Program-made: the position numbers and the translations under genes
NCBI GenBank assembly: GCA_023402015.1
Contig: JAEXCU010000013.1
Span: 59,604-123,603 of the forward strand
Length of the DNA stretch: 64,000 bases
Direction of reading: 5' to 3'
DNA from: Pseudomonadota bacterium
GTDB lineage: Bacteria; Pseudomonadota; Alphaproteobacteria; Rs-D84
Part shown: in pieces, positions 6,917 to 63,896 of the stretch
How the letters are laid out: every line of letters begins with the position of its first letter
Numbering within the stretch: the stretch's first letter is position 1
The notes under the pieces: generated by a model
What the model saw: the letters and a program-made list of their open reading frames with translations, nothing else
Database searches by the model: none
Told to the model about the DNA's origin: nothing

Positions 6917-8158
6917 TTATTTGCAAACGGCGGTGTATGGTGGCACGGAACGTTCTGTATCAATTTCCCCATCACCGCAATCCAGACAATTAAATTTGCG
7001 GTTTTGTGAATGATGCCGGTCCAATGGTATGAATTTGCCGGCCAAATCACTGACGTTGGATACATATGAAAAACTGGGAAAACCAAAATAAAACGCGCGG
7101 GAACGACCACTGCAATCGCGGGTGCGACCGGGATAACAATTTGGATTATTTATTTGCGACGGGTCGGGTATGCAATACGAAACACACGTTTGGGCATCTG
7201 TTATCATTTTTTCGCAATCGGTGCACGAAGACTGTGGAACGCGCAATGTGGCCCCAATCGCGCCATAAATTGCCCCTGTTGTTATATTTGTGCATTTTTT
7301 GACGTCTTCGGTTTTCGTTGGATCGGCAACGCATTCCCATTCCAATGTATTATAATTTAAACGTGCAATCATGTTATCTGGGCATGTTTTTGCGGGGAAC
7401 GGATTGATGCATTCCCAAACACTGTCCACCAAGACGGCGGTTTGTTGTTCTGCGCATAATGGTTTGCGCGATTCATCGGCCACGCATTCTAATAAATCAG
7501 AATCCCAAATCATATCGCCGCCACAATTGGTTTTGGTATTATATCCCAGACACTGCCACCGGCCAAAGCGATATGTTTTAACCGTACCAGCGGGGCATAT
7601 AACGTCGGGTGATATGGGCGTGGTAAATACGGTTTGGGAATCTGGAACCTCGTACTGGGTCATATAAATTAATTGGCCGTTGGTTAATTCCAATTCGGAT
7701 ATTATTGTTTTGGGGACGCTGCGCTTGTCGCTGGTGCCGCCGGATACAATTTGGCCGTCCATAAATATTCCAAACGTGCCGGCATCGGAATAATATTGTT
7801 CTAAAACTTCCATCATATTATTAAAATCCGCGTCCGCCAGGGCGCCGGTTGCGGTTATTATATAACTGGCATCTGGTTTTTTATTTCGCACAATTTCACA
7901 TTTTGTTTTTGCACCACCGGCGTTCAGGCAAATTGTATTACTGGTGATATTATTTTGTGCGATACAGATGTCGTTAAAATCGGTACCCTTAATCTGGGCA
8001 TTGTGCATTGCCGCCGTGCATTCCGCAACACCGCGTAAATCAGAACGATTTATGGCATATTCTGTTTCTTGTTCGGGGATGCGCTGGCTGGGGCTGCTGA
8101 TCATATAATAACCCGCCATAAATATTGCAACCAAAACTATGATAAAAATATTCATCAT
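6917..8158 (-). CDS. cysteine-rich secreted/membrane-anchored protein
   Basis: 413 aa; N-terminal TM/signal anchor IFIIVLVAIFMAGYY; about 30 Cys in CxxC-like spacing in the extracytoplasmic part. Confidence 0.6.
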   Translation of the reverse strand: MMNIFIIVLVAIFMAGYYMISSPSQRIPEQETEYAINRSDLRGVAECTAAMHNAQIKGTDFNDICIAQNNITSNTICLNAGGAKTKCEIVRNKKPDASYIITATGALADADFNNMMEVLEQYYSDAGTFGIFMDGQIVSGGTSDKRSVPKTIISELELTNGQLIYMTQYEVPDSQTVFTTPISPDVICPAGTVKTYRFGRWQCLGYNTKTNCGGDMIWDSDLLECVADESRKPLCAEQQTAVLVDSVWECINPFPAKTCPDNMIARLNYNTLEWECVADPTKTEDVKKCTNITTGAIYGAIGATLRVPQSSCTDCEKMITDAQTCVSYCIPDPSQINNPNCYPGRTRDCSGRSRAFYFGFPSFSYVSNVSDLAGKFIPLDRHHSQNRKFNCLDCGDGEIDTERSVPPYTAVCK

Positions 8159-8246
8159 TCCCCCTTGCGATTTATTAAAAGTCTAGGTAATATAAGGATA
8201 AAATGCAATAGGAAAACTGATTGCAAAAATAAAAAATGGCCAATAA

Positions 8247-8729
8247 ATGAAAAAATATCTTCTGATTTTATCGCTTCTGGTTTTTACTGCGTGCGGTTTT
8301 CAACCAATGTTCACCGGCCAGGATACGGATATTTACGTTCCACCAATAAATGGTATTAATGGTATTGATTTGCGCAATGCGCTAAATGCAAAATTCGGTG
8401 GCCAGCGTGATGCAACCGCGCCGTATACTTTAACGGTCAGTTTGGCCACACCAATCACCCGGTACAAGGCACTGGAACGTACCGGCGACGCAACATGGCA
8501 ACAAATCGTCTTAAATGCAAATTACACATTGACCCATAATGGCGAACAAATCGCATCAGGCACAGAAACGGCGTCGGAATCTTATACATTTGTGCGGTAT
8601 CTGGTGGCGGCGAATGCGTCGTATAATAATGCGGTTCAAAATACGATTAAGGTTTTGGCCGATAAAATTGGAACACGTGCAATCGCAGAAACGCGTCAGT
8701 ATTCAATCGGGAACGATGATAACAAATGA
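8247..8729 (+). CDS. lptE: LPS-assembly lipoprotein LptE-like
   Basis: Lipobox LVFTAC then GFQPMF (compare E. coli LptE CGWHLR); immediately upstream of and overlapping holA as in the conserved leuS-lptE-holA arrangement. Confidence 0.6.
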   Translation: MKKYLLILSLLVFTACGFQPMFTGQDTDIYVPPINGINGIDLRNALNAKFGGQRDATAPYTLTVSLATPITRYKALERTGDATWQQIVLNANYTLTHNGEQIASGTETASESYTFVRYLVAANASYNNAVQNTIKVLADKIGTRAIAETRQYSIGNDDNK

Positions 8730-9715
8730 AATGGAAAGAAACAGATTTTGGAAATGGAATTGAATCCATTCGGGCTGTTTTAATTTATGGCCCTGATGCT
8801 GGCCAGGTTGATGAATACTGTGATAGGGCGGTTGAAAAATTACAAATTGACCGGGATAATTTATTTGCGCTGGATTCTGATGAACTGCGTGAAAAACAGG
8901 ATGCGTTATTTGCAGAAAGTTGCAGTCCATCCATGTTTGGTGGTCGGAAATTGGTTATAATTTCTGGTGCAACTGACGGGTGTGCACGACAAATTTCTGA
9001 TTTGGTTGAACATCCCGGATTATGCGCGACGGTAATTGTTGCCGCGGGTGATTTGCGCGCGGGTGGTTCTTTGCGTTCATTATTTGAAGGTGGCGACAAA
9101 GTTGCCGCATTACCGTGTTATACCGATGATGCGCGGACTTTGGCGACCCTGATACGCAAAGAATTATCGGCAGATGCGGGAATTCAACAAATCACACCCG
9201 ACGCCATGGCGTATATGACATCGCACCTGGGTGGCGACCGTGGAATTACACGTGGTTTTTTAACAAAGATTGCATTGTATGTTGATGATAAAAAAATCGT
9301 AGAACTGGAAGACGTTGAAAAATGTCTGCCTGATACCGGTGCGGCGGATATGGATGATTTTTTATATTCTTTGACCGCCGGTCATATTCAACAGACGATG
9401 ATGGCCCTGGACAGATTGTTATATGACAATGCGGAACCAAACATGTTGGTTCGGATGCTGGACGGACATTTTAAAAAATTATTAACCGCCGTGGTTGAGG
9501 GGCAATTGCCGCGGCTGTTTTGGAAAGTGGCTGAAAAATTTAATCATGCCATTAAAATTTGGCCGGAATCTGAAATAACCGCCGTGTTGGTACGATTAAA
9601 TGAATTGGAAAAACAATTACGCACAACCGGCATGCCGGGCGAGGTTTTATTACGTGATTTTTCATTAAAGTTGGCCGTACGCGCGGCAAAATTATCAATC
9701 AGGAGAAGAAATTAA
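8726..9715 (+). CDS. holA: DNA polymerase III subunit delta
   Basis: 329 aa, AAA-like fold markers (LIYGPD, clamp-loader delta architecture), ATGA overlap with lptE. Confidence 0.75.
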   Translation: MKWKETDFGNGIESIRAVLIYGPDAGQVDEYCDRAVEKLQIDRDNLFALDSDELREKQDALFAESCSPSMFGGRKLVIISGATDGCARQISDLVEHPGLCATVIVAAGDLRAGGSLRSLFEGGDKVAALPCYTDDARTLATLIRKELSADAGIQQITPDAMAYMTSHLGGDRGITRGFLTKIALYVDDKKIVELEDVEKCLPDTGAADMDDFLYSLTAGHIQQTMMALDRLLYDNAEPNMLVRMLDGHFKKLLTAVVEGQLPRLFWKVAEKFNHAIKIWPESEITAVLVRLNELEKQLRTTGMPGEVLLRDFSLKLAVRAAKLSIRRRN

Positions 9716-10479
9716 TGTTATCATCTGTTTATGCACCCAAAGATTTTAAACGTCTGCGTGTGGTTGGCGATTTGGTTGCGCGCTGTTTTGATTATATTTC
9801 CCCGCATATTGTCGCGGGTACGTCCACCGGCCAAATTGACCGCATGGTTGCAGAATTTTTGCGTCAAAACGGTGCACGTTCGTCAGATTTGGGATACCAG
9901 GGTTATCCAAAAAGTATTTGCACATCTGTCAATGATGTTATCGTTCATGGTATCCCCAGTGATGATGTTATATTAAAAGACGGTGATATTGTAAACGTTG
10001 ACCTGACCGCCGAGTACAAGGGTTTTCATGGTGATGCATCACGAATGTTTATGATTGGTCGTGTTTCACCCCAGGCGCGTAAATTGGTACAAACATGCCA
10101 GGATGCATTGAATGCTGCCATTTCTATCTGCGCACCAGGCGTGCCGTTGTCTGAAATTGGCCGTACGATTGAATCCGTGGTTAATCCGCATGGTTTTTCA
10201 ATATCGCGCGATTTTGTTGGTCATGGTATTGGCAAAGTTATGCATGATGACCCACAAATTTATCATTTTTATGACAGGCATTGGGACCGGGTAAAAATGG
10301 TTCCAGGATTGGTATTTACAATTGAACCAATGATTAATACCGGCCGCCCCGAATGCAAAATTGATGCAGATGGTTGGACGGCACGTACGATTGACGGTGG
10401 ATTATCTGCGCAATGGGAACATACAATTGGAATTACCGAAGACGGCGCAATAATCTTTACAGAACCAATGATGCAATAA
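9715..10479 (+). CDS. map: methionine aminopeptidase type I
   Basis: Pita-bread metal ligands: VHGIPSD...DIVNVDL...HG...FVGHGIG...FTIEPM...WEHT. Confidence 0.9.
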   Translation: MLSSVYAPKDFKRLRVVGDLVARCFDYISPHIVAGTSTGQIDRMVAEFLRQNGARSSDLGYQGYPKSICTSVNDVIVHGIPSDDVILKDGDIVNVDLTAEYKGFHGDASRMFMIGRVSPQARKLVQTCQDALNAAISICAPGVPLSEIGRTIESVVNPHGFSISRDFVGHGIGKVMHDDPQIYHFYDRHWDRVKMVPGLVFTIEPMINTGRPECKIDADGWTARTIDGGLSAQWEHTIGITEDGAIIFTEPMMQ

Positions 10480-10497
10480 TTTACACGGGCAACAATA

Positions 10498-11178
10498 TTG
10501 AAAACACCAGATTTATCTTTTCGCATCGGACATCGTGAAAGATTAAGACAAAAATTTCTGGATGATCAATTGGCGGATTATGAATTGCTGGAATTATTAT
10601 TAAGTTTCGCAATTCCCAGACGTGATGTTCGTCCGCTGGCACGTGGACTGATGGCAAAATTCGGTGGAATTCATCAGGTGTTAACGGCGCCAATTGAAGA
10701 ATTAATGAAATATGACGGCGTCGGTAAAAATACCGCGATATTTATCAAGGCAATTCACAAAACAATGTTGCTGGGTTATAAAGCATGTTTGGATAAAAGA
10801 CCTGTTTTTCATGATGAAAAGATTTTAACCAATTATTGCAAAATGTTATTATCCGGCAAACAAAAGGAAGAATTTCATGTCCTTTATTTGGGTGCGGATT
10901 TACGTTTGTTGCACCACGATTTACACAGTGTTGGAACCGTGGACAGTTCAGCCGTCTATCCACGTGAAATTTTGAAACGCGCATTGGATGTCGGTGCACG
11001 CAGTGTCGTTTTATTGCATAATCATCCGACACCATGTACTTCTTTTTCAACCGAGGATATTGAAATCACGGACAAAATCAAAGAAATATTGGAAAAGGTT
11101 GAAATTCGTTTGCACGATCATTACGTGGTATCTGGTGGTTTGATTTATTCTGCGCGCAATATGTTCTTGTTAAAATAA
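10498..11178 (+). CDS. radC: RadC-family JAMM domain protein (UPF0758)
   Basis: HhH N-terminal region plus JAMM motif LLHNHPT...S..D. Confidence 0.8.
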   Translation: MKTPDLSFRIGHRERLRQKFLDDQLADYELLELLLSFAIPRRDVRPLARGLMAKFGGIHQVLTAPIEELMKYDGVGKNTAIFIKAIHKTMLLGYKACLDKRPVFHDEKILTNYCKMLLSGKQKEEFHVLYLGADLRLLHHDLHSVGTVDSSAVYPREILKRALDVGARSVVLLHNHPTPCTSFSTEDIEITDKIKEILEKVEIRLHDHYVVSGGLIYSARNMFLLK

Positions 11179-11811
11179 ATCTGATACATCGCATACTACC
11201 TTTAACTGGCGCGTGCTGATGGGTTGCAGTTTGTTTTTCACAATTGTATAAACAGTTTCTGTGGCCATCGTGGGGGTTGTCCACGATTCTTGCCATGGGC
11301 GTGAAATTTTTACCACACGAAAATCAGGCCGGAATGCAAATTGTAATTTTTGCAATGCGCATTCTGCGCCCTGGGTGGTTCTGAATCCGTCCGGGGTTAT
11401 GTCAATGTATGTGCCATTATTGTTTATTGCAATCTGATATTGGTCATAATAATGGTCTGTTCCATTTTCATGTCGTGTGCGTATTATTCTGTCAGGTCGC
11501 CCGTCATGGTTAATGTCGCGGTTAAAAGCATCCATGCGTGCAACACCGGCGCCAAATTCATTTAATTCGTATTGTTCCGAATAATCCGGATTTATCAGGC
11601 CGTCTGATTCCGTTTTATTGGTTGGTGCCGGTTGGTTCGTTGTATTTGTTGCATTAATCGTTGGCGATTCCACGTTGTTCGTACGATGAATTTGCGGTGT
11701 TTTTCCCGCAATCAACATGTATCCCAACACGCCAATAACCACCAGCATTATTACCAATAACACTGTCAGACCTGTGGCCCCACGTTGTGATTTATATAAT
11801 TGCGTTGTCAT
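11170..11811 (-). CDS. hypothetical membrane-anchored protein
   Basis: 213 aa with N-terminal TM LTVLLVIMLVVIGVLGYMLIA, N/T-rich linker. Confidence 0.5.
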   Translation of the reverse strand: MTTQLYKSQRGATGLTVLLVIMLVVIGVLGYMLIAGKTPQIHRTNNVESPTINATNTTNQPAPTNKTESDGLINPDYSEQYELNEFGAGVARMDAFNRDINHDGRPDRIIRTRHENGTDHYYDQYQIAINNNGTYIDITPDGFRTTQGAECALQKLQFAFRPDFRVVKISRPWQESWTTPTMATETVYTIVKNKLQPISTRQLKVVCDVSDLF

Positions 11812-11821
11812 CTTTATCGCC

Positions 11822-12850
11822 TTAGATTTGTGTTATTCGTCCGGGTGTCCATCCTTCCAGTACGCGGATTGCGGCGGCAATGCGTGATAATTCAGCATCG
11901 TTTAAATCCCGTATCCGTTTATTAATGGACAGTCCCGTTAATTTTTCAATTTGCCGATGGTATGATGATGTATTATTTTCAGACGGTGGGGCATATTTAC
12001 TGATTGCCGATGCAATGGTCAGGTTATTATAACTGTCGCTGCGCATCAGGGCACGAATTGCGCGCATGCCGGTTGCTTCGTCTGGGAAAACGGCAAAACC
12101 ACCGGCGGAACCAATTGCACCCATACGCGCGGCAAATTCGGAATATCGTATGTTGCCCGGATTGGAATTGCGCCACGCGCGACTGCCCCCGGTGCGTCTG
12201 GTGCGGGTTCCGTCCGCGTTATGATAAATGACGTCCTTGGCCGATTCTGTGGCCCGTGTTGGTTGGCCATTGCCGGTGTTATTAATTGTTGGGGTGCGGT
12301 CAATTGCAACGTTGGTGTCAGGTGATACTGAAACAGATACGTCTTGCACTGCGCCTGCACCAACGATTGGCGATTGTGCATATGGAATTTCATGTGGTGC
12401 CGCACCGGTGTACGTTGCGCCGGAATCATATATTTCGTATTCTTCGTATAAATCGTATTCATTACGGGATGACAGTTTTGATTGGCGCGCATCCAACAGG
12501 CGGTTAACTTCGCTGATTTCAACGCGTATTGTGCGACACCCACGCGCAAATAAATCATCGCCGTAAATTAAATTTATAATTGGTCCGACCGCCGCCAGTG
12601 TCCCGAATATCAGCAATAAATTACGCATATTTGTGAACAGGTCGTTTTTGGCGCCGCGTATCATTGATATCGCCCATCCAAACAACAGTAAACCTGTTAT
12701 GAAAACAATAATAATCCACGCATAATATGCAAATGTTTCAAAACTGCGCAAAATACACGACGGATCTTCCAGGTATATAAACGACCCGTCCGCACCCAAT
12801 ATATGAAATCCGGAATTTGTCAGTAATCTAAGAATCGTATTTATATTCAT
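11822..12850 (-). CDS. hypothetical membrane protein with conserved C-terminal domain
   Basis: 342 aa; 2 TM near N-terminus; C-terminal block WRNSNPGNIRYSEFAARMGAIGS...FAVFPDEATGMRAIRALM of unknown function. Confidence 0.5.
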   Translation of the reverse strand: MNINTILRLLTNSGFHILGADGSFIYLEDPSCILRSFETFAYYAWIIIVFITGLLLFGWAISMIRGAKNDLFTNMRNLLLIFGTLAAVGPIINLIYGDDLFARGCRTIRVEISEVNRLLDARQSKLSSRNEYDLYEEYEIYDSGATYTGAAPHEIPYAQSPIVGAGAVQDVSVSVSPDTNVAIDRTPTINNTGNGQPTRATESAKDVIYHNADGTRTRRTGGSRAWRNSNPGNIRYSEFAARMGAIGSAGGFAVFPDEATGMRAIRALMRSDSYNNLTIASAISKYAPPSENNTSSYHRQIEKLTGLSINKRIRDLNDAELSRIAAAIRVLEGWTPGRITQI

Positions 12851-12867
12851 AAACGTTCATTGGGCGC

Positions 12868-14022
12868 CTATTTTTTTATTGCGGCGCCGGTAAAGAAACC
12901 GGGCATAGAAAAATCTTCGTCATTTGCGGCAATTCCGGCCCACCCGAACAGGTCGCCCATCAGTCCGGATTCATCACGTTTTGCCTTTTTAAATGGTAAA
13001 ATGTTTTTTAATTTTCCGATTTTTCCATGGCTTTGATTCTTGGGCGCGGCGACAATTTTATCCTGGTTTTCTGCAAATTCTGTGGCCAATTGTGCCAATG
13101 TTGCATCCGCGTCATCTGTATCATCAGAAAATGCATTCGGTACCACAGGTGTAATTTCATCGGGTTCAGACGTCGTGTCGTTAATATGTTCTTCGGCGAT
13201 ATCTTCGCGCAGTGGGGTCATACTTTCCAATAACTGTTCCAATGTTTTTTCAATTGGGGCGGTTGGGGCATCATCTGTAATCATGTCTGCGATGCTGACC
13301 GTTTCTGTGGAAATTTCCTGTGTGTCTTCGTTATCTGTTTCGGTCATTTCGGTTGTAATATTTACATCGCTGATGATAACTTCGTCAACCGCAATATCTG
13401 TATCCACCGGTGTTGGAACGCTGTCATTTTTTTCAGGTTCCACAATTTCCACCGGGGCGGGTTCGGATGTTTCTGTTTGTGTATTTTTTGCCGCCAAAAT
13501 GGATAAAATGGGAATAATTTTTTCGTTTTGTTCATCTGCGGCGGGTTCTGATTCCACAGTGGCCGATTCCATTGGCACTGATTCCACCGTTTCAGATTCC
13601 ACTGGGGCGTTTTCTGCCGATTGTGGTGCGGTGGTGTTTTCCGCAGTATTCGGGATAATTTCGTTTGTTGGTTCCGCGGTTGTTTCCACATTTTCCATTG
13701 GCGCCGGGGCAACACGCGCAGGACGCACGCGCGGTTTTTTAACAGGTGCCTTTTTTACAATTTCTGTTTCATTTGTTGGGATAACATCAATCTGTTCGTT
13801 TTTTATTTCAGATTCTGGGGCGACCGGTTCCGTAATTGGGGCAGATTGAATTTCATCTGTGGCAATGGTTTGGGTAATTGCATCATCGGCATCCACCGGA
13901 ACACCAAACAAAACGGTGTCAGACGCCAACCCCAGTGCGGCCCGCACTTCGTCAAAAGCGGCGCGAATATCCGCCATAGCGAAAATTTCATTACCGGAAA
14001 TATATATGATTTTGGTCTTCAT
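12868..14022 (-). CDS. acidic low-complexity protein (E/T/P/V-rich)
   Basis: ATG at 14020-14022 (MKTKIIYISG) with GGGGGA RBS; the track's longer ORF to 14079 lacks an RBS; highly acidic repetitive middle. Confidence 0.55.
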   Translation of the reverse strand: MKTKIIYISGNEIFAMADIRAAFDEVRAALGLASDTVLFGVPVDADDAITQTIATDEIQSAPITEPVAPESEIKNEQIDVIPTNETEIVKKAPVKKPRVRPARVAPAPMENVETTAEPTNEIIPNTAENTTAPQSAENAPVESETVESVPMESATVESEPAADEQNEKIIPILSILAAKNTQTETSEPAPVEIVEPEKNDSVPTPVDTDIAVDEVIISDVNITTEMTETDNEDTQEISTETVSIADMITDDAPTAPIEKTLEQLLESMTPLREDIAEEHINDTTSEPDEITPVVPNAFSDDTDDADATLAQLATEFAENQDKIVAAPKNQSHGKIGKLKNILPFKKAKRDESGLMGDLFGWAGIAANDEDFSMPGFFTGAAIKK

Positions 14023-14104
14023 AGAATCTTGTCCCCCACTAGATGCGGTTATTATATCACATTTTGGTGTTGAACGCATATAAAAAATATCTTAAACTGG
14101 GGAT

Positions 14105-14314
14105 ATGTCAGATATAAAACAGCAAATTTTTCAAGAATTGTCCCAATTGGAAGATGCCGCGGCCCGATTGCGTGGTGCCGCCGCCGTTGCGGGCAAGCAA
14201 ACAGATTTAGAAGTTGCCATTTTAACCGAACAGGTTAAAACCCTGCGCGAGAAAAATAACCGCGCCACAGATATGATTGATAAATCGTTGACGATATTAA
14301 AGAAGTTGAAATGA
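14105..14314 (+). CDS. small coiled-coil protein upstream of zapA (ZapB/DUF4164-like)
   Basis: 69-aa coiled coil, ATGA overlap with zapA. Confidence 0.5.
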   Translation: MSDIKQQIFQELSQLEDAAARLRGAAAVAGKQTDLEVAILTEQVKTLREKNNRATDMIDKSLTILKKLK

Positions 14315-14586
14315 GTGTTGTATCAATACCAATTGTAAATAAAAATTATCCCATGGGATGCGAAGACGGGCAAGAGGCGCGCCTGATTGAACTGGGCAAA
14401 ATGGTGGACGGCCGGGCGCGTGAAATTTTGGATAAAATTGGGCCTTTGCCAGAAAATGCTTTGTTGGCCACATTGTGTATTGTTTTGGCCGACGAAGTTC
14501 ATAACCGACCAACCCCAACCGTTTCGGATGCGGATTTAAAAGAAATATTGGCCCGGATTCGTGAAATAAAAAATAAAATTAATTAA
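14311..14586 (+). CDS. zapA: cell division protein ZapA
   Basis: VSIPIVNKNYPMGCEDGQEARLIELGKMVDGRAREI matches the ZapA core (V.I.G..Y.i.C.dGeE..L...A..vd). Confidence 0.7.
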   Translation: MSVVSIPIVNKNYPMGCEDGQEARLIELGKMVDGRAREILDKIGPLPENALLATLCIVLADEVHNRPTPTVSDADLKEILARIREIKNKIN

Positions 14587-14615
14587 GAAATAAAAATGCG
14601 CCATTGGCGCATTTT

Positions 14616-15770
14616 TTATATTGTTCGCTGCATTTGATTCACAATCATACTGTGCACTGGTGAATATTGTGCAATAACGCGTTCTTTGATTGTGTTCAAT
14701 TCCGGCGTGGGTTGTTTAAAATATTTGGCCCGTGCCAGTTTTAACAAATCTTCGCGTGTTAAATGCATCAAATGATACCGATTGGCATCGTCTGTTTCAC
14801 ATAGGAATTCAATCAGTTCTTCGCGCGATTTGGATTCAATTGTTTGCCATTCTTTGGCGTACTGTGCGCGTGCGATTTTCTTTGTATCGGCGGCAAACAC
14901 GTTGGATGTGTCCCATGTATCAAACAGGTATCCCATTTTTTCGCGATTGTGGCCGGTGTAAACGTGTTTGCCCATGCTGTCTGCGACAAATTCGTTGTTT
15001 ACGATACGCCCACGTCCCAGAAACATAATCATATGAAACTGATTTTTACTGCCGCGATAACGCGGAACAATCATCATTGTACCCGCGTCCAGCGCATCTG
15101 CGGAAAAATTTTTACGCGCAAAATCCGACATCGCCGCCGCGCGAACAGAATCAGGTGCATTTGGCGCAACACGGCGACGTGTCAGATATTTATTTAATGC
15201 CACATTATATGCGGAATCAGATTCAAACATTTTGCCTTCGCGGATGCATTCATCATATTCTGGCCCGCGATATTTCGTGCGCATTTGGTATTTAAATTGG
15301 CCACAGGCGCGACTGGCATCCCGGGGGACAATTGTCAATGTATCACCCATTTCGGACAATGCGCGCGTTAATTGGGTATATTGACCATATACGCAATGCA
15401 GGCCAACCGGCGCGCCGGGCAATTCGCGACGGACCGCGGCGCGATATCCGTTTTTGCCAACCAATGGGCCCAGTTTTTGTTGTGCGGTCAGCATGTTTTC
15501 CATGTATTTATCGCGCAGATTTTCCGCCTTTTTATCCAAATTCATTTCATCCAGCATCATGTAATAATGGGATTCATATTCCGGCGTAAAATTGCCCAAT
15601 GCCAATTTTGGCAGATTCAATTCAGCGCGTGATACCGGCATTTGTGGCAATATAATATTTTTTGTTTGGGGCGTGGTTGGCGGAATTTCCTGTTGGCCGC
15701 GCGTTTGACCCGATACAAACATCAATCCAGTACCCAGAATCACATATGGAACGATAAATTTTGCATTCAT
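14616..15770 (-). CDS. hypothetical secreted protein
   Basis: ATG at 15768-15770 (MNAKFIVPYVILGTGLMFVSG signal peptide). Confidence 0.55.
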   Translation of the reverse strand: MNAKFIVPYVILGTGLMFVSGQTRGQQEIPPTTPQTKNIILPQMPVSRAELNLPKLALGNFTPEYESHYYMMLDEMNLDKKAENLRDKYMENMLTAQQKLGPLVGKNGYRAAVRRELPGAPVGLHCVYGQYTQLTRALSEMGDTLTIVPRDASRACGQFKYQMRTKYRGPEYDECIREGKMFESDSAYNVALNKYLTRRRVAPNAPDSVRAAAMSDFARKNFSADALDAGTMMIVPRYRGSKNQFHMIMFLGRGRIVNNEFVADSMGKHVYTGHNREKMGYLFDTWDTSNVFAADTKKIARAQYAKEWQTIESKSREELIEFLCETDDANRYHLMHLTREDLLKLARAKYFKQPTPELNTIKERVIAQYSPVHSMIVNQMQRTI

Positions 15771-16111
15771 TTTCACACCTTTGCAATCAAACAGACGCAC
15801 CGGTATTAACCGCTTTGTCTTGTATTAAGTTATTTTTTTTGATTGGTTCGTCGCAATATGGAAATTTGCGGCGTACATTCAGACAAAATGGAAATCCAAA
15901 ATGCCCCGACTTGCCCTTGTGGCAGCCCGCCCCATCAGGGGAACCAAAGTTTGTATATACATATAATAATTATAATTCACAGAATTTCAAGGGGAAAAGA
16001 AACTTTTTTTAATTTTTTTCTTTGTCGGCCGCGTTGTGTGGGGATTATGTACATTTTGGGCGATTTTTTCTGTTGTTATTTTTTTTCAAATGTTCTAAAT
16101 TTTGGGGTGTC

Positions 16112-18600: not shown

Positions 18601-18966
18601 GCAAAAAACGCCCCAATCGGGGCGTTTAAATTTGTATGAAAATAACGCAATTAGTGCGAAACTTTCGTTTCGGTCATAACGACATGCTTGCGCAATTTCG
18701 GGTCGTATTTGCGAAACTTCATTTTACCGGCCGTATTTTCAGACTTGGTATTTTTTGTTGTGATATAGAAGACCCCTGTTTCTTTGTTCATCAGGGCTAC
18801 GACTTCTTTGCTGCCTTTTTTAGATGCCATTTTATTTGCCTTTTATTATTCTGCCTGGGATTTTAGGGTAAAATTTACTGGAAATCAAGTCTTTTTTATC
18901 ATAATATGATTTTTATGGGGCTATGGCGACTGCGCAGCGTAGCGAAGTGCCGCCATACCCGTCAGT

Positions 18967-19051
18967 GCGGGTATGGCGAAACTGGCAGACGCGCTGGATT
19001 TAGGTTCCAGTGGGGCAACCCATAGGAGTTCAAATCTCCTTACCCGCACCA
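18967..19051 (+). tRNA. tRNA-Leu (anticodon TAG)
   Basis: Acceptor GCGGGTA/TACCCGC, long variable arm, anticodon loop cTGGAtttaggtTCCAG, T-arm AGGAGTTCAAATCTCCT, encoded CCA. Confidence 0.9.
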
Positions 19052-21265: not shown

Positions 21266-23038
21266 ATGTATTTCAGCAATGGAAATTACGAAGCATTTGC
21301 CAACCCGCAAAAGCCCAAAGATGTGGATAAAAAATCTGCATACATTATCGGCGGCGGTCTGGCGGGATTGGCCGCGGCGGTATTTTTAATTCGCGATGGT
21401 AAAATGGCCGGCAAAAAAATCCAAATTTTTGAAGAACTGGATTTGGCCGGTGGCAGTATGGACGGAATTTTAAATCCCCAACGTGGATACATCATTCGTG
21501 GCGGCCGCGAAATGGAGGCCCACTTTGAAACCCTGTGGGATTTATTCCGGTCCATTCCGTCATTGGAAAACCAAGACGTATCTGTGTTGGATGAATTTTA
21601 TTGGCTGAACAAATCCGACCCCAGTTTTTCACATTGCCGTGTTATTGAAAACCGGGGCAAACGCATGAAGTCTGATGGTAAATTAACCCTGACCCAGGGG
21701 GCCATTCGGGAACTGATTGACCTGGCCCTGACGCCCGAAGAAGATTTGCAAGATGTTCAGATTGACCAGGTGTTCAGTGAAGAATTCTTTGAATCAAATT
21801 TCTGGTTGTATTGGGCGACAATGTTTGCATTTGAAAAATGGGCGTCTGCAATGGAAATGCGGCGCTATATTTTGCGCTTTATTCATCATGTGGGAACATT
21901 GGCTGATATGTCTGCATTAAAGTTCACAAAATATAATCAATATGAATCACTGATTACGCCATTGGTGAAATGGTTGGAAAAACAGGGTGTGAAATTTCAT
22001 TACGACACGCGCGTGATAAATGTTCTGATTGATTCCACGCCTGACAGAAAGGTTGCCCAGAAAATTCAATTAACCAAGGGTGGCAAAAAACGGGAAATAT
22101 CACTGACCCCAGATGATTTGGTCTTTATTACCAACGGTTCCATTACCGAAAGTACAACGTATGGCGACAATGATACGCCCGCATCGCAAAAACATGAACT
22201 GGGGGGCAGTTGGGAATTATGGAAAAACATTGCGGCCCAGGACCCAGAATTTGGACATCCGGAAAAGTTCTGTGAAAATATCCCGGCGGCAAACTGGGTA
22301 ATGTCTGCAACGATAACATTGACGGACGACCGTGTTGTGCCGTATATTAAACGCATCTGTAAAAAAGACCCGCACAGCGGATCAATCGTCAGCAGTGGCC
22401 CCGTTACAATCAAGGATTCCAATTGGCTGTATGGATTCAGCATTTCGCGTCAACCGCATTTCCGCAGTCAAAAACCAAACGAATTGATTGTTTGGACGTA
22501 TGGGTTGTTGTCCGATACCCCGGGCAATTACGTGCGCAAAAAAATTGCAGACTGCACGGGCGCAGAATTGTGCGCGGAATGGTTGTATCATATCGGTGTG
22601 CCAATGGCCGAAATAGATGACATTGCGCATCACAGTGCAAATACTGTCCCGTCCCATATGCCGTATATCACGACGTATTTTATGCCACGCGCACTGGGCG
22701 ACCGGCCGTTGGTGGTGCCACGGGGCGCAGTTAATTTCGCATTTATCGGAAACTATGCAGAAACGGTTCGCGATACAGTGTTTACCACCGAATATTCCGT
22801 CCGCACCGCGATGGAGGCCGTGTACACATTACTGAACGTTGATCGTGGTGTGCCCGAAGTATTTGATTCTTGCTTTGACGTTCGTGTATTGTTGCGCAGT
22901 ATTTATTACCTGAACGACAAAAAGAAATTAAGCGAAATAGACCTGCCTTGGTTTATGAAAGTTCTGGAAAAACGCGGAATGAAGAAAATCCAAGATACGT
23001 ATCTGGAACAATTATTAAAACAGGCAGATTTGGTTTAA
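21266..23038 (+). CDS. oleate hydratase (FAD-dependent fatty acid hydratase, MCRA family)
   Basis: N-terminal FAD fold [21 protein letters not shown] and characteristic MCRA-family length of 590 aa; GGAGG RBS. Confidence 0.8.
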
Positions 23039-23102
23039 TTAACACGATAAAAAATGTCATTTATAATCATCATAAATAAAAACAGGCGATTAATTCGCCT
23101 GT

Positions 23103-23130
23103 TTTTATTTTGGCAGCCCCAACCAGATTC
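23103..23130. repeat. partial direct duplicate of tRNA-Glu 3' end (att-like)
   Basis: gtttttattttggcagccccaaccagattc matches 23358-23385 at the 3' end of the tRNA-Glu gene, 255 bp away. Confidence 0.8.
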
Positions 23131-23208
23131 CCTCGGCATAAAATGCCTGCGGGGAAACCGTAACGGCTTGATTGCGCTGCGCTTATCTCGCCTACTTGTT
23201 TTCGCACA

Positions 23209-23266
23209 GTGTCAAATTTTGTGTCAAATTTTGTGTCAAATTTTGTGCAAATTTTGTGTAAAAATA
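23209..23266. repeat. tandem iteron-like repeat (gtgtcaaatttt x about 4.5)
   Basis: gtgtcaaattttgtgtcaaattttgtgtcaaattttgtgcaaattttgtgtaaaa inside the tRNA-Glu-associated spacer. Confidence 0.7.
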
Positions 23267-23365
23267 TGCTAAAAAATGTCAAAAAATGACGATTTGGGAA
23301 ACAAATTATTAAACTATTGGGAAACGATAAATAATAAAAAACCGCAGAAATCTGCGGTTTTATTT

Positions 23366-23441
23366 TGGCAGCCCCAACCAGATTCGAACTGGTGTTCTCG
23401 CCTTGAAAGGGCGGTGTCCTAGGCCTCTAGACGATGGGGCC
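23366..23441 (-). tRNA. tRNA-Glu (anticodon TTC)
   Basis: Revcomp ggccccatcgtctagaggcctaggacaccgccctttcaaggcgag...ccagttcgaatctggttggggctgcca; G1:U72, encoded CCA. Confidence 0.9.
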
Positions 23442-23996: not shown

Positions 23997-24104
23997 TATT
24001 TTTCTCCCTTGGTTGGTATGCCAAGTATAACATATTGTCAATCATAGTAAATGTTATTTTATACCCAATGAAAAACGCACCCGAATGGATGCGTTTTTTA
24101 TTGT

Positions 24105-24123
24105 CTGGCGGGATTGAAGGGGT
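24105..24123. repeat. partial direct duplicate of tRNA-Asp 3' end (att-like)
   Basis: tctggcgggattgaagggg identical to 24292-24310; preceded by a similar T-rich tract. Confidence 0.8.
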
Positions 24124-24293
24124 TGTAAATTCCCACCGCTGTGCGGCGGGCCCCTTTCGGCTTGTACGGTTCAAACTGTGCGTTGCTTGTTTTCACCAAC
24201 TTCGCACACGAACCCTCTGCTTGGGTTCGCGCCCCTGGCATATTCATCAAGACAAATAAAAAACGTATCTTAAAAGATACGTTTTTATTTATC

Positions 24294-24370
24294 TGGCGGG
24301 ATTGAAGGGGCTCGAACCCTCGACCTTCTGCGTGACAGGCAGACGCTCTAACCAGCTGAGCTACAACCCC
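24294..24370 (-). tRNA. tRNA-Asp (anticodon GTC)
   Basis: Revcomp ggggttgtagctcagctggttagagcgtctgcctgtcacgcagaaggtcgagggttcgagccccttcaatcccgcca. Confidence 0.9.
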
Positions 24371-34496: not shown

Positions 34497-34680
34497 TGAT
34501 ACGTAATAGGTGATACGATTTTTTAAAACCATCACCCCCATTGTCATTGCGAGGACCACCGGGACTAAGCAATCCAGTTAACTAACTTTGCCGCTTTATT
34601 TATGGATTGCCATCCGTCCACACTTCGTGTGGCCGCGACGGACGCGGGAATGACAAGACCATTTATTATTGAATTATGCA
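34497..34680. repeat. palindromic repeat cluster (GTGATACGTAATAGGTGATACG; GTCATTGCGAGG; TGGATTGCC; CCACACTTCGTGTGG)
   Basis: Same families as 18372-18600 / 30603-30850. Confidence 0.75.
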
Positions 34681-34681
34681 A

Positions 34682-34854
34682 ATATTCATTGTATAATGCG
34701 AATGCATCGGGCGATTCCCGATGTGAGGTGTAGTACCCTCATATAAGACATTTCTCCAACATGGTTGGAGGGTTGCGATATACTTGAATAAGCAACACTA
34801 TTCTTGTAGTAGGTACTAACCTCCAACCGCCCTTAATCACGGCGGTGTTTTTTT
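34682..34854 (+). ncRNA. structured RNA leader, family member A (upstream of small XRE HTH gene)
   Basis: ATATTCATTGTATAAT promoter-like start; hairpin CATCGGGCGATTCCCGATG; GAGGTGTAGTACCCTCATAT; hairpin CTCCAACATGGTTGGAGGGTTGCGATAT; terminator CCGCCCTTAATCACGGCGG+TGTTTTTTT. Confidence 0.6.
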
Positions 34855-34857
34855 AAC

Positions 34858-34925
34858 TGGATTGCCACGCTGCACTTTGTTTGCTCGCAATGACAACGCT
34901 TTGTCGTCGCGAGGGAGTAAAACGA
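34858..34925. repeat. palindromic repeat unit inserted between leader A and its HTH gene
   Basis: TGGATTGCCACGCTGCACTTTGTTTGCTCGCAATGACAA...GTCGTCGCGAGGGAG, same family. Confidence 0.7.
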
Positions 34926-42988: not shown

Positions 42989-43828
42989 ATGTCTGTTTCC
43001 ATAGATAACGTCTTCGTGAAACAATTTGAAGCCGACGTCCATTTGGCATACCAACAAATGGGCACAAAATTGCGCGCAACCGTGCGCAGCAAAACCGGTG
43101 TTGTGGGTGCATCCACGACCTTTCAAAAGGTTGGGCGCGGCACCGCCAGCACTAAATCACGTCATGGCATTGTGCCGGTGATGAATTTAAACCATGAACC
43201 TGTGGAATGTCTGTTGCAGGATTATTATGCGGGTGATTGGGTTGATGCATTAGATGAATTAAAAATAAACATAGACGAACGTCGTGTTGTGGCATCTGCG
43301 GGTGCGTATGCATTGGGACGTAAAACCGATGAATTGATTATCGCCGCCATGAATGGTGCAACCGCAACCGTTGGTGATTATTCAACCGGCCTGACCAAGA
43401 ATTTGATTTTGTCCGCCGTTGAAACGCTGAATTCCAAAGATGTTCCAGATGACGGCCGCAGATTCGCGGTTGTTGGGGTGCATCAGTGGAATGAATTATT
43501 GTCATTGGATGAATTTGTTTCCGCCGATTACATTGGCGACGATTTGCCATTGGTAAATGGTGGCGCATCAAAAAAATGGTTGGGGATTACATGGTTGTTG
43601 CATAACGATTTGCCGGTTAATTCTAATAAACGTGATTGCTTTATTTACCATGCCAGCAGCATTGGGCACGCATGTGGCCAAGATGTCAAAACAGATATTT
43701 CTTGGCATGGTGAACGCGCCGCGCATTTTATCAGCAACAGCATGTCCCAGGGTGCAGTTCTGATAGATAGCGACGGTATCGTTCGCGTTAAATGCAGCGA
43801 TGTGGATGCAACAAAATCAAATGAATAA
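42989..43828 (+). CDS. putative major capsid protein (by position after scaffold)
   Basis: 279 aa, strong AAAGGAATATG RBS, follows the gp9-like scaffold as gp10 does in T7; no direct motif. Confidence 0.45.
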   Translation: MSVSIDNVFVKQFEADVHLAYQQMGTKLRATVRSKTGVVGASTTFQKVGRGTASTKSRHGIVPVMNLNHEPVECLLQDYYAGDWVDALDELKINIDERRVVASAGAYALGRKTDELIIAAMNGATATVGDYSTGLTKNLILSAVETLNSKDVPDDGRRFAVVGVHQWNELLSLDEFVSADYIGDDLPLVNGGASKKWLGITWLLHNDLPVNSNKRDCFIYHASSIGHACGQDVKTDISWHGERAAHFISNSMSQGAVLIDSDGIVRVKCSDVDATKSNE

Positions 43829-46768: not shown

Positions 46769-47317
46769 ATGCATAAAATTTCATATACCGGTGATGGCGA
46801 AACGAATGAATACCTGTTTGCTTTTCCATTTTTTCAGACGGGCGATGTGCGCGTTGCATTGAATAATGTTGTTCAGGATGCATCCAAATACAGTGTGATT
46901 GCCAACGAAGATTTTACCGGCGGCACCGTGGTTTTTCCGGCCCCGGTTGATACAGGCATTCAGATTGATATCTTTCGCCAGGTGTCTTTGACCCGTGTTG
47001 TTGATTATCAACCCACCGCCAAGATTGATCCAGAAAATCTGAACAGCGATTTTAATTTTTTATTGGCGGCGTTTCAGGACCTGCATGCGGTTGATATAGA
47101 CCTGGCCGAATGGGCGAATACACACGACAATGTGTTATCTTTTCTGCAATATAATTTACAGGTAATACAAGATAAACTGTCGGGTGGGTCGGTTATGGGG
47201 CTGTATCGTAATTTATTAACTGTGTTGGACAGTGCGTTGCCCACGTTGATAAATGATTATGGTTCCATTAACGAACCGGCGCCGGGTGAAAACAGTGATG
47301 ACTACGGCGTTTTATAA
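46769..47317 (+). CDS. tail fibre protein, T7 gp17 N-terminal (tail-attachment) domain only
   Basis: MHKISYTGDGETNEYLFAFPFFQTGDVRVALNNV... parallels T7 gp17 N-terminus (YQLDGSNRDFNIPFEYLARKFVVVTL); only 182 aa, no distal fibre domain. Confidence 0.6.
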   Translation: MHKISYTGDGETNEYLFAFPFFQTGDVRVALNNVVQDASKYSVIANEDFTGGTVVFPAPVDTGIQIDIFRQVSLTRVVDYQPTAKIDPENLNSDFNFLLAAFQDLHAVDIDLAEWANTHDNVLSFLQYNLQVIQDKLSGGSVMGLYRNLLTVLDSALPTLINDYGSINEPAPGENSDDYGVL

Positions 47318-47900
47318 TTTCTTGGATGAATGGAATGCATTGATTGGCATGAAAACGCCGGAACACCACCGTAAAATAATGGAATTTTTGGTGGCAACGT
47401 TAAATGATGCGCCGCATCGTGGGTTGCTGATGGCGTTTCGTCATTCGGGAAAATCAACCGTTGTGGGAATCTTTGCGGCATGCGTGTTATATTTGCATCC
47501 GGAAACCAGAATATTAATTCTGTCCGCGGAAAGCCGTTTGGCTGCACGCATGGTTGCGCATATTCGTCATATTTTGGAAAACCATCCGCGATGCAGTGAA
47601 ATGGTTCCCACAATAAAAAAAGAATGGGCGTCAGGACGCATCACAATCAATCGGCCGATTGGAATTCGCGAACCGTCCGTCGTATGCCAGGGTGTACATG
47701 GAAATATAACCGGTTTGCGCGCGGATTTAATTATTTGCGATGACGTAGAGGTTCCAAATACAACCAATACGGCACAAAAACGGGAAAACCTGCGGGAAAG
47801 GTTGCGGGAATTGGATTTTATATTATCACCCACCGGCACAATGATTTACATTGGTACGCCGCACACAACAGATACGATTTATCGTACAACGGAAAAGTAA
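47298..47900 (+). CDS. terminase large subunit, N-terminal ATPase fragment
   Basis: Walker A FRHSGKST, Walker B LIICDDVE, motif III-like YIGTPHT; ends abruptly after the ATPase core. Confidence 0.65.
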   Translation: MTTAFYNFLDEWNALIGMKTPEHHRKIMEFLVATLNDAPHRGLLMAFRHSGKSTVVGIFAACVLYLHPETRILILSAESRLAARMVAHIRHILENHPRCSEMVPTIKKEWASGRITINRPIGIREPSVVCQGVHGNITGLRADLIICDDVEVPNTTNTAQKRENLRERLRELDFILSPTGTMIYIGTPHTTDTIYRTTEK

Positions 47901-52091: not shown

Positions 52092-52174
52092 AGATTTGTT
52101 CAGATATTTCATATGGAAAATATCTGCCACAAAAATTATGCGAAATAAATTTGCAAAGAAAAAAGGATTTAATT

Positions 52175-63540: not shown

Positions 63541-63578
63541 AAATAATTTGTTGTTAAAAAGGAAGTGCTTTTATTAAG

Positions 63579-63599
63579 AATGGGGCGGATGACCGGATT
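63579..63599. repeat. partial direct duplicate of tRNA-His 3' end (att-like)
   Basis: aatggggcggatgaccggatt identical to 63737-63757. Confidence 0.8.
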
Positions 63600-63738
63600 G
63601 TTCGCATCCGCTCACCACACGTAAGGCTCAAACTGCGTAAACTTGTTTTCGCCAACTATCGTGTCGTACCGGCGGTTCTTATCACGGTATCGCAACCGAT
63701 TAATAAAAAAACGCCCCGCTGGGCGCATTTTTTATTAA

Positions 63739-63816
63739 TGGGGCGGATGACCGGATTCGAACCGGCGACATTTGGTACCACAAACCAACGCTCTAACCAA
63801 CTGAGCTACATCCGCC
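63739..63816 (-). tRNA. tRNA-His (anticodon GTG) with encoded G-1
   Basis: Revcomp g-gcggatgtagctcagttggttagagcgttggtttgtggtaccaaatgtcgccggttcgaatccggtcatccgc-c-cca. Confidence 0.9.
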
Positions 63817-63820
63817 ATAC

Positions 63821-63896
63821 TGGTGGAGCTGATCGGACTCGAACCGACGACCCCTTGCATGCCATGCAAGTGCTCTACCAACTGAGCTACAACCCC
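63821..63896 (-). tRNA. tRNA-Ala (anticodon GGC)
   Basis: Revcomp ggggttgtagctcagttggtagagcacttgcatggcatgcaaggggtcgtcggttcgagtccgatcagctccacca; G3:U70 identity pair. Confidence 0.9.

Follow-up and report, generated by a model that had tools for sequence, protein, structure and literature searches.

In a 64,000-nt stretch of contig JAEXCU010000013.1 (assembly GCA_023402015.1; called the window below, at its full length), the genes for tRNA-Glu, tRNA-Asp and tRNA-His are each followed by a short unit in which the 3′ end of the same tRNA is repeated. By sequence comparison, the spacers of these units are members of a previously undescribed family, which in Enterousia-like contigs from gut metagenomes was found behind 14 or more tRNA species. 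We consider the chances about even that this family consists of non-autonomous, gene-less integrative mini-elements which are specific for tRNA 3′ ends and measure ∼160–200 nt per unit. The window GAPDH is 87% and 79% identical to GAPDHs from Candidatus Enterousia metagenome-assembled genomes, and the host is an uncultured gut alphaproteobacterium; contigs near-identical to the window are present in ENA and in Logan gut assemblies. Below, related loci and contigs which were compared with the window are labelled with L-numbers (L001, L007, L242 and so on).

Direct copies of tRNA 3′ ends in the window and in related contigs

ARAGORN and Rfam gave five tRNAs in the window, and those for Glu, Asp and His all lie on the minus strand, with tRNA-His as the second gene of an Ala-His operon. 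For each of the three, an exact 17–20 nt copy of tRNA nt ∼58–76 is located 158–255 nt downstream; the chance expectation of a 17-nt exact copy within 300 nt is ∼2e-8. These copies had been pointed out in the initial annotation, and ARAGORN, Rfam and repeat analysis confirmed them. Among the 16 tRNAs of unrelated viral contigs which were used as a control, none had a comparable 3′-end copy (0/16), and a second set of Alphaproteobacteria GAPDH neighbourhoods gave one usable tRNA and was uninformative. Terminator-like hairpins are found both after the full tRNA (T1) and after the partial copy (T2). The spacers had also been described as conserved across all three tRNAs. This held for Asp and His, which have a 43-nt block in common (local-alignment z = 10.5) and both match the covariance model of the family, but not for Glu, where the match to His is limited to GCGAAAACAAGT (z = 3.7) and the unit is of a separate subtype.

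Further copies beside other tRNAs, for which the initial annotation had proposed to look, were indeed present. We searched with a degenerate 27-position pattern from the conserved block in which R/Y/K positions were left free, and it matched 24 metagenome loci, all of them short units; essentially every one was located on the strand of a tRNA gene and directly downstream of it. The tRNAs at these loci were Arg(TCT), Arg(CCG), His, Leu(AAG), Leu(CAA), Val, Lys, Ser, Met, Glu and Gly(CCC), to which Arg(ACG) and Pro in L007, Tyr in L242, and Asp in the window and L237 are added. L007, which was fetched through GAPDH, has a 21-nt 3′-end copy behind tRNA-Arg and a related spacer behind tRNA-Pro. 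L211 was fetched through homologs of the META-domain protein, the gene of which lies between tRNA-Asp and tRNA-Glu, and its unit behind tRNA-Glu is nearly identical to the Asp unit of the window. In an unbiased sample, ∼7/20 tRNA transcription units, about a third, carried a unit.

Anatomy of the units

On the tRNA strand, the order is tRNA, T1, an inverted segment (a′), hairpin H1, a ∼100-nt core, the direct copy (a) and T2. We distinguished two subtypes, type A (the Asp and His form) and type B (the Glu form), which are alike in layout and differ in their cores; type A units measure 158–207 nt across ∼30 loci. Segment a′ is a degenerate reverse complement of tRNA nt ∼49–76 and often begins with TGG, the complement of CCA. 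H1 is GAACC/GGTTC, and its 3′ strand together with a G re-creates the 5′ strand of the T-stem and TTCG; moreover, H1 tracks unusual tRNAs such as Glu (CAGTTCG) and Met (GGGTCCG). In type A, H1 is followed by a 7-nt subfamily-specific segment, H2 (GUUGGUG-AAAAC...GUUU-GAACCUUAC), the linker CGAAAGGGGCC, a sequence-variable H3 and GGGAAUUUACA, and then by a and T2. The type B core runs from GGTTCG-AAAACAAGTAG through a hairpin, ACGGTTTCCCC and another hairpin to GAGGGA.

The direct copy was exactly nt 58–76 (19 nt) in most of the 22 loci scored, and the left junction in these 22 loci was always GGTTCG followed by the core. Thus, each unit has a partial second copy of the tRNA 3′ region, which the core interrupts precisely between T-loop nt 57 and 58. 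The base of a′ opposite A58 was G and not T in ∼15/21 units (read by eye from alignment A3; typically GGACGAGAACC, where GGACTCGAACC would be expected), and this looks like a feature of shared design and not like random decay. No ORF (open reading frame) was present inside any unit, and coding potential of the spacers was rejected on the basis of indels and non-periodic substitutions between members. No conserved sigma-70 promoter was found by eye in the core on either strand. The initial annotation had recognized the duplicated ends, and that description stands; a′, the nt 57/58 junction, the single-strand structure of the core and the two subtypes had not been seen there.

Covariation points to a folded single strand in the core

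We examined 21 type A units by RNAalifold and explicit pair counting. H1, H2 and H3 were supported, with 94.2% of cells paired, and the pairing fell to 23–46% when the partners were slid out of register. Changes on both sides of a pair occurred in 56 cells compared with 15.8 in column shuffles (0/500 shuffles reached the observed value), 11/24 pairs had such changes, and the covariation score was 0.296 compared with 0.141 in shuffles. Covariation was perfect at H2 columns 74/104, 75/103 and 85/92 (GC/AU, UA/CG and CG/UA), and it spans subfamilies and tRNAs and was not imposed by the search pattern. Judged by this covariation, the core is a structured single-stranded nucleic acid, either RNA or single-stranded DNA (ssDNA), the helices of which are maintained by compensatory changes. 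On the tRNA-sense strand G·T pairs outnumber A·C pairs by 7 to ∼1, and hence the constrained strand is the tRNA-sense strand. H2 and H3 are mutually dissimilar.

Several further structures were considered and rejected. A tRNA-like cloverleaf or minihelix for the 3′ part was rejected because its pairing varies across members; an outer a′/a stem is predicted by single-sequence folding, and it is lost in the Asp ortholog L237. Pairing of the X segment (after GGTTCG) with the segment after CTTAC was subfamily-specific only and not convincing (alignment A3, by eye). Self-cleaving ribozymes, group II domain V, the CRESS-type nonanucleotide and the TTAC of IS608 gave motif resemblance only, with no Rfam support.

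Insertion, turnover and exchange between tRNA genes

Units vary in presence and absence among related species, a comparison which the initial annotation had suggested, and the sister strains L242 and L243 form an occupied/empty pair at tRNA-Tyr. In L243, tRNA-Tyr is directly followed by its terminator, whereas L242 has 336 nt inserted exactly between CCA and the terminator. Two type B units in tandem (169 and 167 nt) make up the insert, and each has T1, a′, GGTTCG, core and a. The terminator and its flank, 71 nt, are 100% identical between the two loci and the next 1.5 kb downstream are 96% identical; the distal tRNA-end copy in L242 is mutated, and the T1 sequence differs from the original terminator. 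The pair therefore indicates that T1 was imported with the element, so that the functional tRNA ends in element-borne sequence and the original end with its terminator was displaced. The topology of insertion shown here is that of tRNA-integrating islands.

Tandem accretion was seen in L221, L223, L236 and L242. Behind one tRNA in L223, a type B unit is followed by a type A unit, and L221 and L236 have a second, partial unit. Units were truncated or deleted in L209/L210, L238 and L207. Locus L210 was rejected as a virgin empty site, because it retains the start of a′ and is hence a deletion derivative. Similarly, L002 and L003 were rejected as empty tRNA-Asp sites. In strain L001 the 5′ flank of the Asp T1 has been converted to the T2 form by gene conversion between the repeats, which gives a 35-nt repeat; since a repeat of this length breaks k=31 assemblies, tRNA-Asp is the point after which the Logan contigs L002 and L003 end. 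Neither E. onthequi (L005) nor L004 has the Asp unit, whereas the closer relative L237 does.

The cores do not cluster by tRNA identity. The Asp core of the window shares 88–90% identity with His cores (L217, L227) and 84% with a Glu core (L233), the cores of a His and a Leu(CAA) unit in one assembly are 97% identical, and tRNA-His carries three different subfamilies in different genomes. Thus, there has been exchange between tRNA loci, by transposition or by gene conversion of the core.

In L207 (806–1760), a decayed type A unit for tRNA-Glu (23.5 bits with the covariance model) lies 820 nt downstream of the tRNA, and a GNAT acetyltransferase gene with its own terminator lies between them. 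This tRNA flank appears to be a rearrangement hot spot. The GNAT gene was rejected as cargo of the element, since its homologs occur in unrelated contexts, and a local rearrangement is probable. In L001, positions 1300–1420 hold an orphan core-like fragment which is absent from the window strain.

Search for an enzyme and for known relatives

The initial annotation had proposed to look for a cognate tyrosine integrase. No integrase was found with Pfam among 10 window ORFs, and no XerD-like protein was found with phmmer (XerD query) in 755 ORFs from ∼400 kb of related loci, both searches being of low power. A Y1/RAYT-like protein was also not found in 2225 ORFs of related loci, which represent partial genomes. 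These enzyme searches are weak because the loci are fragments of many genomes, and a trans-acting enzyme may be located elsewhere in the genome. The unannotated window ORFs of ∼400 aa had no Pfam match to OrfB_IS605.

Relatives of the unit itself were sought in several collections. With Rfam 15, only tRNAs were found in the window at the gathering threshold, and at E <= 1 nothing was found over the core in the three canonical loci. The core pattern had 0 matches in IMG/VR viral contigs, where a looser pattern gave noise only, and blastn with the core gave no match in plasmid and phage collections. Thus no autonomous parent with att-proximal arms homologous to the core was seen in viral contigs, plasmids or phages. 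A literature search found nothing comparable to the family.

A reverse transcriptase (RT) gene was observed on an Enterousia-like contig. In L239 (1–1024), tRNA-Asp is preceded at a distance of 3 kb by an RVT_1 gene (E = 4e-16), after which come four small uncharacterized ORFs. This could be a retron or a defence locus of the defence-associated reverse transcriptase (DRT) type, and it is not linked to any unit.

Proposed mechanism and its alternatives

If the family consists of mini-elements, each unit would bring a replacement copy of nt 58–76, so that the tRNA stays intact, and the displaced original nt 58–76 and T2 would end up distal. A folded single strand as the active form is suggested by the sense-strand constraint, the built-in antisense copy of the target and the conserved mismatch at the junction. 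We thus picture an element that would move as a single strand, ssDNA or RNA. In this strand a′ could pair with both target-like halves to form a duplex resembling the T-arm and acceptor, from which the core is bulged out at nt 57/58. A trans-acting enzyme of the host or a helper might then exchange strands with the tRNA gene within nt 58–76, as with folded attC or CTX-phage sites, and resident copies would subsequently decay or be homogenized by gene conversion. The initial annotation had likewise proposed mini-elements mobilized in trans; topology, family nature, presence/absence polymorphism and tandem accretion support this in part, but an integrase was not found.

Several observations weigh against integrative mini-elements. 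A circle or duplex of 160–200 bp is very small for a classical tyrosine integrase, and each new tRNA target would need new a and a′ arms. No recombinase, transposase or reverse transcriptase was linked to any unit, within the low power of searches in partial genomes. The L242/L243 pair is equally explicable by allele transfer through homologous recombination or by precise deletion between 19-nt repeats, and the high identity of cores between loci could be due to gene conversion instead of transposition. Moreover, the Asp core is conserved relative to its ortholog (80% identity compared with 57% at third codon positions) with stem changes that preserve pairing, which hints at host-level selection, that is, at a functional RNA.

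The last point leads to the alternative that the core and the 19-nt copy form a host-level structured non-coding RNA, which would be read through from the tRNA promoter and end at T2. It could act as a scaffold with a 3′ guide, like an omega-RNA or a CRISPR RNA (crRNA), for an unlinked effector, or as a decoy or processing module for tRNA 3′ ends, and the spread of the family would be secondary. We regard such an RNA as unlikely, while giving it serious weight. It would fit the covarying hairpins with G·U pairs on the tRNA-sense strand, the order of conserved scaffold, 19 nt matching the neighbouring gene and terminator, and the TTCG of the T-loop, which in the tRNA gene directly precedes the segment matched by the copy, in the position of a transposon- or protospacer-adjacent motif (TAM/PAM); the stem substitutions in the orthologous Asp core are wobble-preserving or compensatory. 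However, no conserved promoter was found by eye, the strong terminator T1 always lies between tRNA and core, no effector gene is adjacent in any locus, and there is no Rfam match at E <= 1. The supposed guide has decayed next to an intact core in L001 Glu, L211, L225, L227, L231, L237 and the distal L242 copy, and a′ likewise decays in many loci. In addition, units are lost or truncated in the close relatives L209/L210, L238 and L207.

It is also conceivable, with a distinctly small probability, that no dedicated machinery exists. Template switching at the palindromes of T-arm and terminator would then have produced tandem-inversion duplications, and the core would spread passively, from locus to locus by gene conversion at the universal microhomologies GGTTCG and ARTCC, and from strain to strain by homologous recombination. 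Together, the tRNA end, T1 and a′ do make up a long and imperfect palindrome with the terminator loop at its centre, T-loop microhomologies flank the core in every unit, gene conversion is visible in L001 (T1 flank to T2 form, 35-nt repeat), and the tRNA-Leu leader (18917–18966) has a similar direct and inverted arrangement of the tRNA 5′ end. But a ∼100-nt core with covarying hairpins that is common to >14 tRNA loci cannot be created by local duplication, the T1 of L242 is unlike the original terminator and hence imported and not duplicated, and the G opposite A58 in ∼15/21 units points to a shared design. We think it very improbable that the units are decayed remnants (attL/attR with arm sites) of ordinary integrase-bearing islands or prophages, a variant of which, an arm-site remnant of a larger island, had been offered in the initial annotation. 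In favour of it, such islands classically leave duplicated tRNA 3′ ends behind, the window has phage-like genes at scattered positions, and a GNAT gene lies between tRNA-Glu and the decayed unit in L207. This reading is contradicted by the uniform size of the units (158–207 nt in ∼30 type A loci), by the lack of gene fragments within any unit, and by the covarying hairpins. Two fresh tandem units (169 and 167 nt) in one strain, the 0 matches of the core pattern in viral contigs, the lack of matches in phage and plasmid records, and flanks in which limited searches found no integrase also speak against it. The probability remaining after these readings is left for mechanisms outside those considered.

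A bolder reading can be formulated, which we hold to be doubtful. The family might represent a new kind of selfish element, a protein-less, replicon-less parasite of 160–200 nt of ssDNA or RNA, in which a′ serves as guide or splint and the strand mimics a T-arm and acceptor with the core bulged at nt 57/58. A housekeeping enzyme, such as a Xer-type recombinase, a tRNA-processing or repair enzyme or an unlinked reverse transcriptase, would home it into tRNA genes, where the imported 3′ end and terminator would restore the tRNA. In effect, it would be of viroid size, DNA-integrating and bacterial. If active, the units would be among the smallest site-specific mobile units known, gene-less and targeting essential single-copy tRNA genes without damage, and would point to an unrecognized way in which a folded single strand can hijack an enzyme of the host or of a helper. 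Should the core be a host RNA instead, it would define a new class of tRNA-linked structured RNA with a built-in copy of the tRNA end. In these reduced gut genomes, the units have a formative influence on terminators, on the 3′ flanks of tRNA genes and on recombination nearby, and they break short-read assemblies at tRNA genes, as in L002 and L003, which end exactly at the repeat.

Comparison with known systems

Islands and prophages that integrate into tRNA genes are reportedly sublocated from the T-loop to the 3′ end (Williams 2002). The present units resemble them in the direct repeat of the tRNA 3′ segment from the T-loop, the replacement 3′ end with its own downstream sequence, the displaced original end and tandem accretion. 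Bounding repeats of the attL/attR type are present, with 17–20 nt in the window and 19 nt in most of 22 related loci, and the 71 nt after the distal L242 copy are the 71 nt after tRNA-Tyr in the empty L243. In contrast to islands, the units have only 160–200 nt, no integrase or other gene, an extra inverted copy of the target and a covarying single-strand core. Moreover, because the identity of the unit starts at nt 58, the 7-nt T-loop cannot be the overlap region, unlike in tRNA-integrating islands.

Cis-mobilizable elements (CIMEs) are att-flanked units without recombination genes from streptococcal systems of integrative and conjugative elements (ICEs), and are kilobase-sized deletion derivatives of identifiable ICEs. 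The family is similarly gene-poor, bounded by att-like repeats, presumably mobilized in trans and found in tandem accretion with related elements, but it has no known parent element and has a dedicated folded core. Folded single-stranded recombination sites are known from the integron attC and from attP(+) of CTX phage, which is used by XerCD. Here the likeness lies in the arms of an imperfect palindrome that re-create a duplex site on one strand, in conserved mismatched or extrahelical crossover positions and in strand specificity. The target in the present case is the tRNA T-arm and acceptor instead of attI or dif, and there is no cargo.

Miniature inverted-repeat transposable elements (MITEs), REPINs (doublets of repetitive extragenic palindromes) and the palindrome-associated transposable elements (PATEs) derived from IS200/IS605 are also small, gene-less, hairpin-rich and multi-copy, and need an enzyme in trans, with ssDNA as the active form in HUH-type families. 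They differ from the present family in its strict tRNA-3′-end specificity, its 19-nt target repeat with an imported terminator and its lack of constant terminal inverted repeats. The inverted arms a′/a are tRNA-specific, and in place of the short fixed duplication of MITEs there is a repeat of 19 tRNA nt, which sometimes includes the terminator as well. As for PATE and RAYT features, H2 and H3 are dissimilar, H3 is variable and a target duplication is present, in addition to the negative Y1/RAYT search in partial genomes described above.

Guides of the TnpB omega-RNA or Cas12 type, including the tRNA-matching homing crRNAs of CRISPR-associated transposons (CASTs), have in common with the units a structured scaffold, ∼19 nt matching a tRNA gene and TTCG 5′ of the target match. 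They differ in that the units have no adjacent effector, match their immediate neighbour gene, carry a decayed guide in many copies and have no Rfam match. The primer-binding site (PBS) of long terminal repeat (LTR) retroelements is 18 nt complementary to tRNA nt 59–76, ending at m1A58. The repeated segment of nt 58/59–76, the TGG at the start of the opposite strand and the short terminal direct repeats around the unit are similar, whereas there is no RT, polypurine tract (PPT) or LTR in or beside the units, it is the tRNA-sense strand, identical to the tRNA and not its complement, that is under the pairing constraint, the host is bacterial and the RVT_1 gene in L239 is unlinked. We consider that the finding belongs with non-autonomous site-specific elements, and there is a small but real probability that it is something categorically new.

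The three units of the window

All features of the three units lie on the minus strand, except that T2 of the Glu unit has no strand assigned. The Asp unit is a complete type A unit; its covariance-model match (24120–24252, minus strand) reached 109.7 bits with E = 2.5e-29. It follows the intact tRNA-Asp(GUC) (24294..24370; ARAGORN, Rfam) and begins with T1 (24254..24292), an inverted repeat with the hairpin GTATCTT/AAGATAC that is kept in the ortholog L237. Segments a′ and H1 (24209..24239) were placed by alignment to the reverse complement of the tRNA and by H1 covariation; a′ is GCCAGGGGCGCGAACCC, an inverted copy of tRNA-Asp nt ∼49–65 with one mismatch, and is followed by a loop and then by GGGTTCG, a sense copy of the T-stem 5′ strand with TTCG. 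The core (24124..24208) comprises the X segment, H2 (GUUGGUG-AAAAC...GUUU-GAACCGUAC), the linker CGAAAGGGG, H3 (CCCGCCG/CGGUGGG) and AAUUUACA. Copy a (24106..24122) is CCCCTTCAATCCCGCCA, corresponding to nt 60–76; it is exact over 17 nt of tRNA, or 18 nt with a flanking base, and is also part of a 56-nt repeat of 80% identity that takes in the terminator. T2 (24067..24104), an inverted repeat with the hairpin GCATCC/GGGTGC, lies upstream of the META-domain gene, and its ortholog is kept in L237. The core is 80% identical between the window and L237, compared with 70–82% in neighbouring intergenic segments and 57% at third codon positions of META. In L237, H2 has three stem substitutions, all yielding G·U pairs, and the outermost pair of H3 is changed from C-G to U-A. 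The stem changes and the identity of the core are compatible with some constraint on the resident copy, but the numbers are small, and C-to-T is the commonest mutation in AT-rich genomes.

The His unit is a type A unit after tRNA-His (63739–63815) in the tRNA-Ala(GGC)-tRNA-His(GUG) operon (63739..63896; ARAGORN, Rfam). The Ala-His arrangement with type A units was also found in L214, L217, L226, L227 and L234. T1 (63702..63736) has the hairpin GCGCCC/GGGGCG in its sequence. It is followed by a′ with a degenerate H1 (63665..63693), aligned as GCGATACCGTGATAAGAACCGCCGGTACG, which repeats the 3′ region of tRNA-His in inverted and degenerate form, and by the core (63600..63664), in which H2 is intact and the H3 region is replaced by TGAGCGGATGCGAAC, able to pair with the following copy. 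The core was identified by the covariance model (63595–63702, minus strand; 63 bits, E = 1.1e-15) and the block shared with Asp (z = 10.5). Copy a (63581..63599), AATCCGGTCATCCGCCCCA, repeats nt 58–76 exactly over 19 nt, or 21 nt with the flank. A weak, A/T-rich T2-like hairpin (63553..63578) after the copy and upstream of a 144-aa ORF has no strong stem and is a tentative assignment.

The Glu unit is of type B. The intact tRNA-Glu(UUC) (23366..23441; ARAGORN, and 54.3 bits with Rfam) has its last 20 nt repeated downstream. T1 (23333..23365), an inverted repeat with the intrinsic-terminator hairpin AAATAAAACCGCAGATTTCTGCGGTTTTTTATT, comes directly after CCA and is probably element-borne, by analogy with L242/L243. 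Where other units have a′ and H1, the Glu unit has the 12-mer tandem array that the initial annotation had noticed and that proved to be real, namely (ACAAAATTTGAC)n with AT-rich filler (23209..23266; repeat family D1). The array has 4 units in the window, L084 and L085, and 2 units in strain L001. The core (23131..23207) consists of GTGCGAAAACAAGTAG, a hairpin region, CGTTACGGTTTCCCC, a GGCAT/ATGCC hairpin and GAGG. It scored only 12.9 bits with the type A covariance model and was assigned by alignment to the type B unit behind tRNA-Arg in L223 (z = 9.5), which in turn resembles the L007 unit behind tRNA-Arg(ACG) (z = 21). Copy a (23111..23130), GAATCTGGTTGGGGCTGCCA, is an exact repeat of nt 57–76, and the whole exact repeat is 28 nt (23103–23130), reaching into the T-tract flank; strain L001 has 2 substitutions in this copy. 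T2 (23074..23110) is a bidirectional terminator hairpin, an inverted repeat of 16 bp with 100% complementarity, and is also positioned to terminate the convergent MCRA gene (21266–23038 in the ORF map).

Other repeats and neighbouring genes

A possible third, reduced subtype was seen behind tRNA-Gly(UCC) in L242 (426–535) and L243 (725–838), where no terminator is present and a 17-nt copy of the tRNA 3′ end, TCCCGCTGCCCGCACCA, follows after ∼105 nt; the spacer contains AGTTGGGTAACCTTGCG, which resembles a collapsed H2. The leader of tRNA-Leu in the window (18917–18966; tRNA at 18967–19051) holds two copies of the 5′ end of this tRNA, a degenerate direct one, GGGGCTATGGCGA, and an inverted one, GCCGCCATACCC, on either side of CTGCGCAGCGTAGCGAAGT. 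In L211 (13340–13555), the same tRNA-Leu is followed by a 73-nt partial tandem copy, the first 12 nt of which are replaced by GCGTAGCGCAGCGG. The leader arrangement may be a 5′-side counterpart of the 3′-end elements. Another family of small palindromic intergenic repeats, which is strain-variable, is present at window positions 34540–34900, with the types GGATTGCCAC...TCGCAATGAC, CATTGCGAGG...AGCAATCC and ATTTTCACCGNNGC...GAAAAT, and was also found after units in L214, L218, L219, L235 and L242; the orphan core-like fragment of L001 occupies one spot of this variation between strains.

Five ORFs of 329–413 aa at window positions 6917–15800 had no Pfam match at E <= 0.001. Phage-type genes lie amid housekeeping genes at 42989–43828, 47253–47900, 51228–52091, 52151–53407 and 61875–63104, and encode Phage_capsid_2, Terminase_6N, a T7-type terminase RNaseH-like domain, a T7-like head-tail connector, and GH108 with a Mu-F-like domain. 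The housekeeping genes between them include DnaB (49688–51331) and RNase E/G (54408–56204), and no integrase was seen there. These phage-type genes could represent a decayed prophage or a domesticated particle module like that of a gene transfer agent (GTA).

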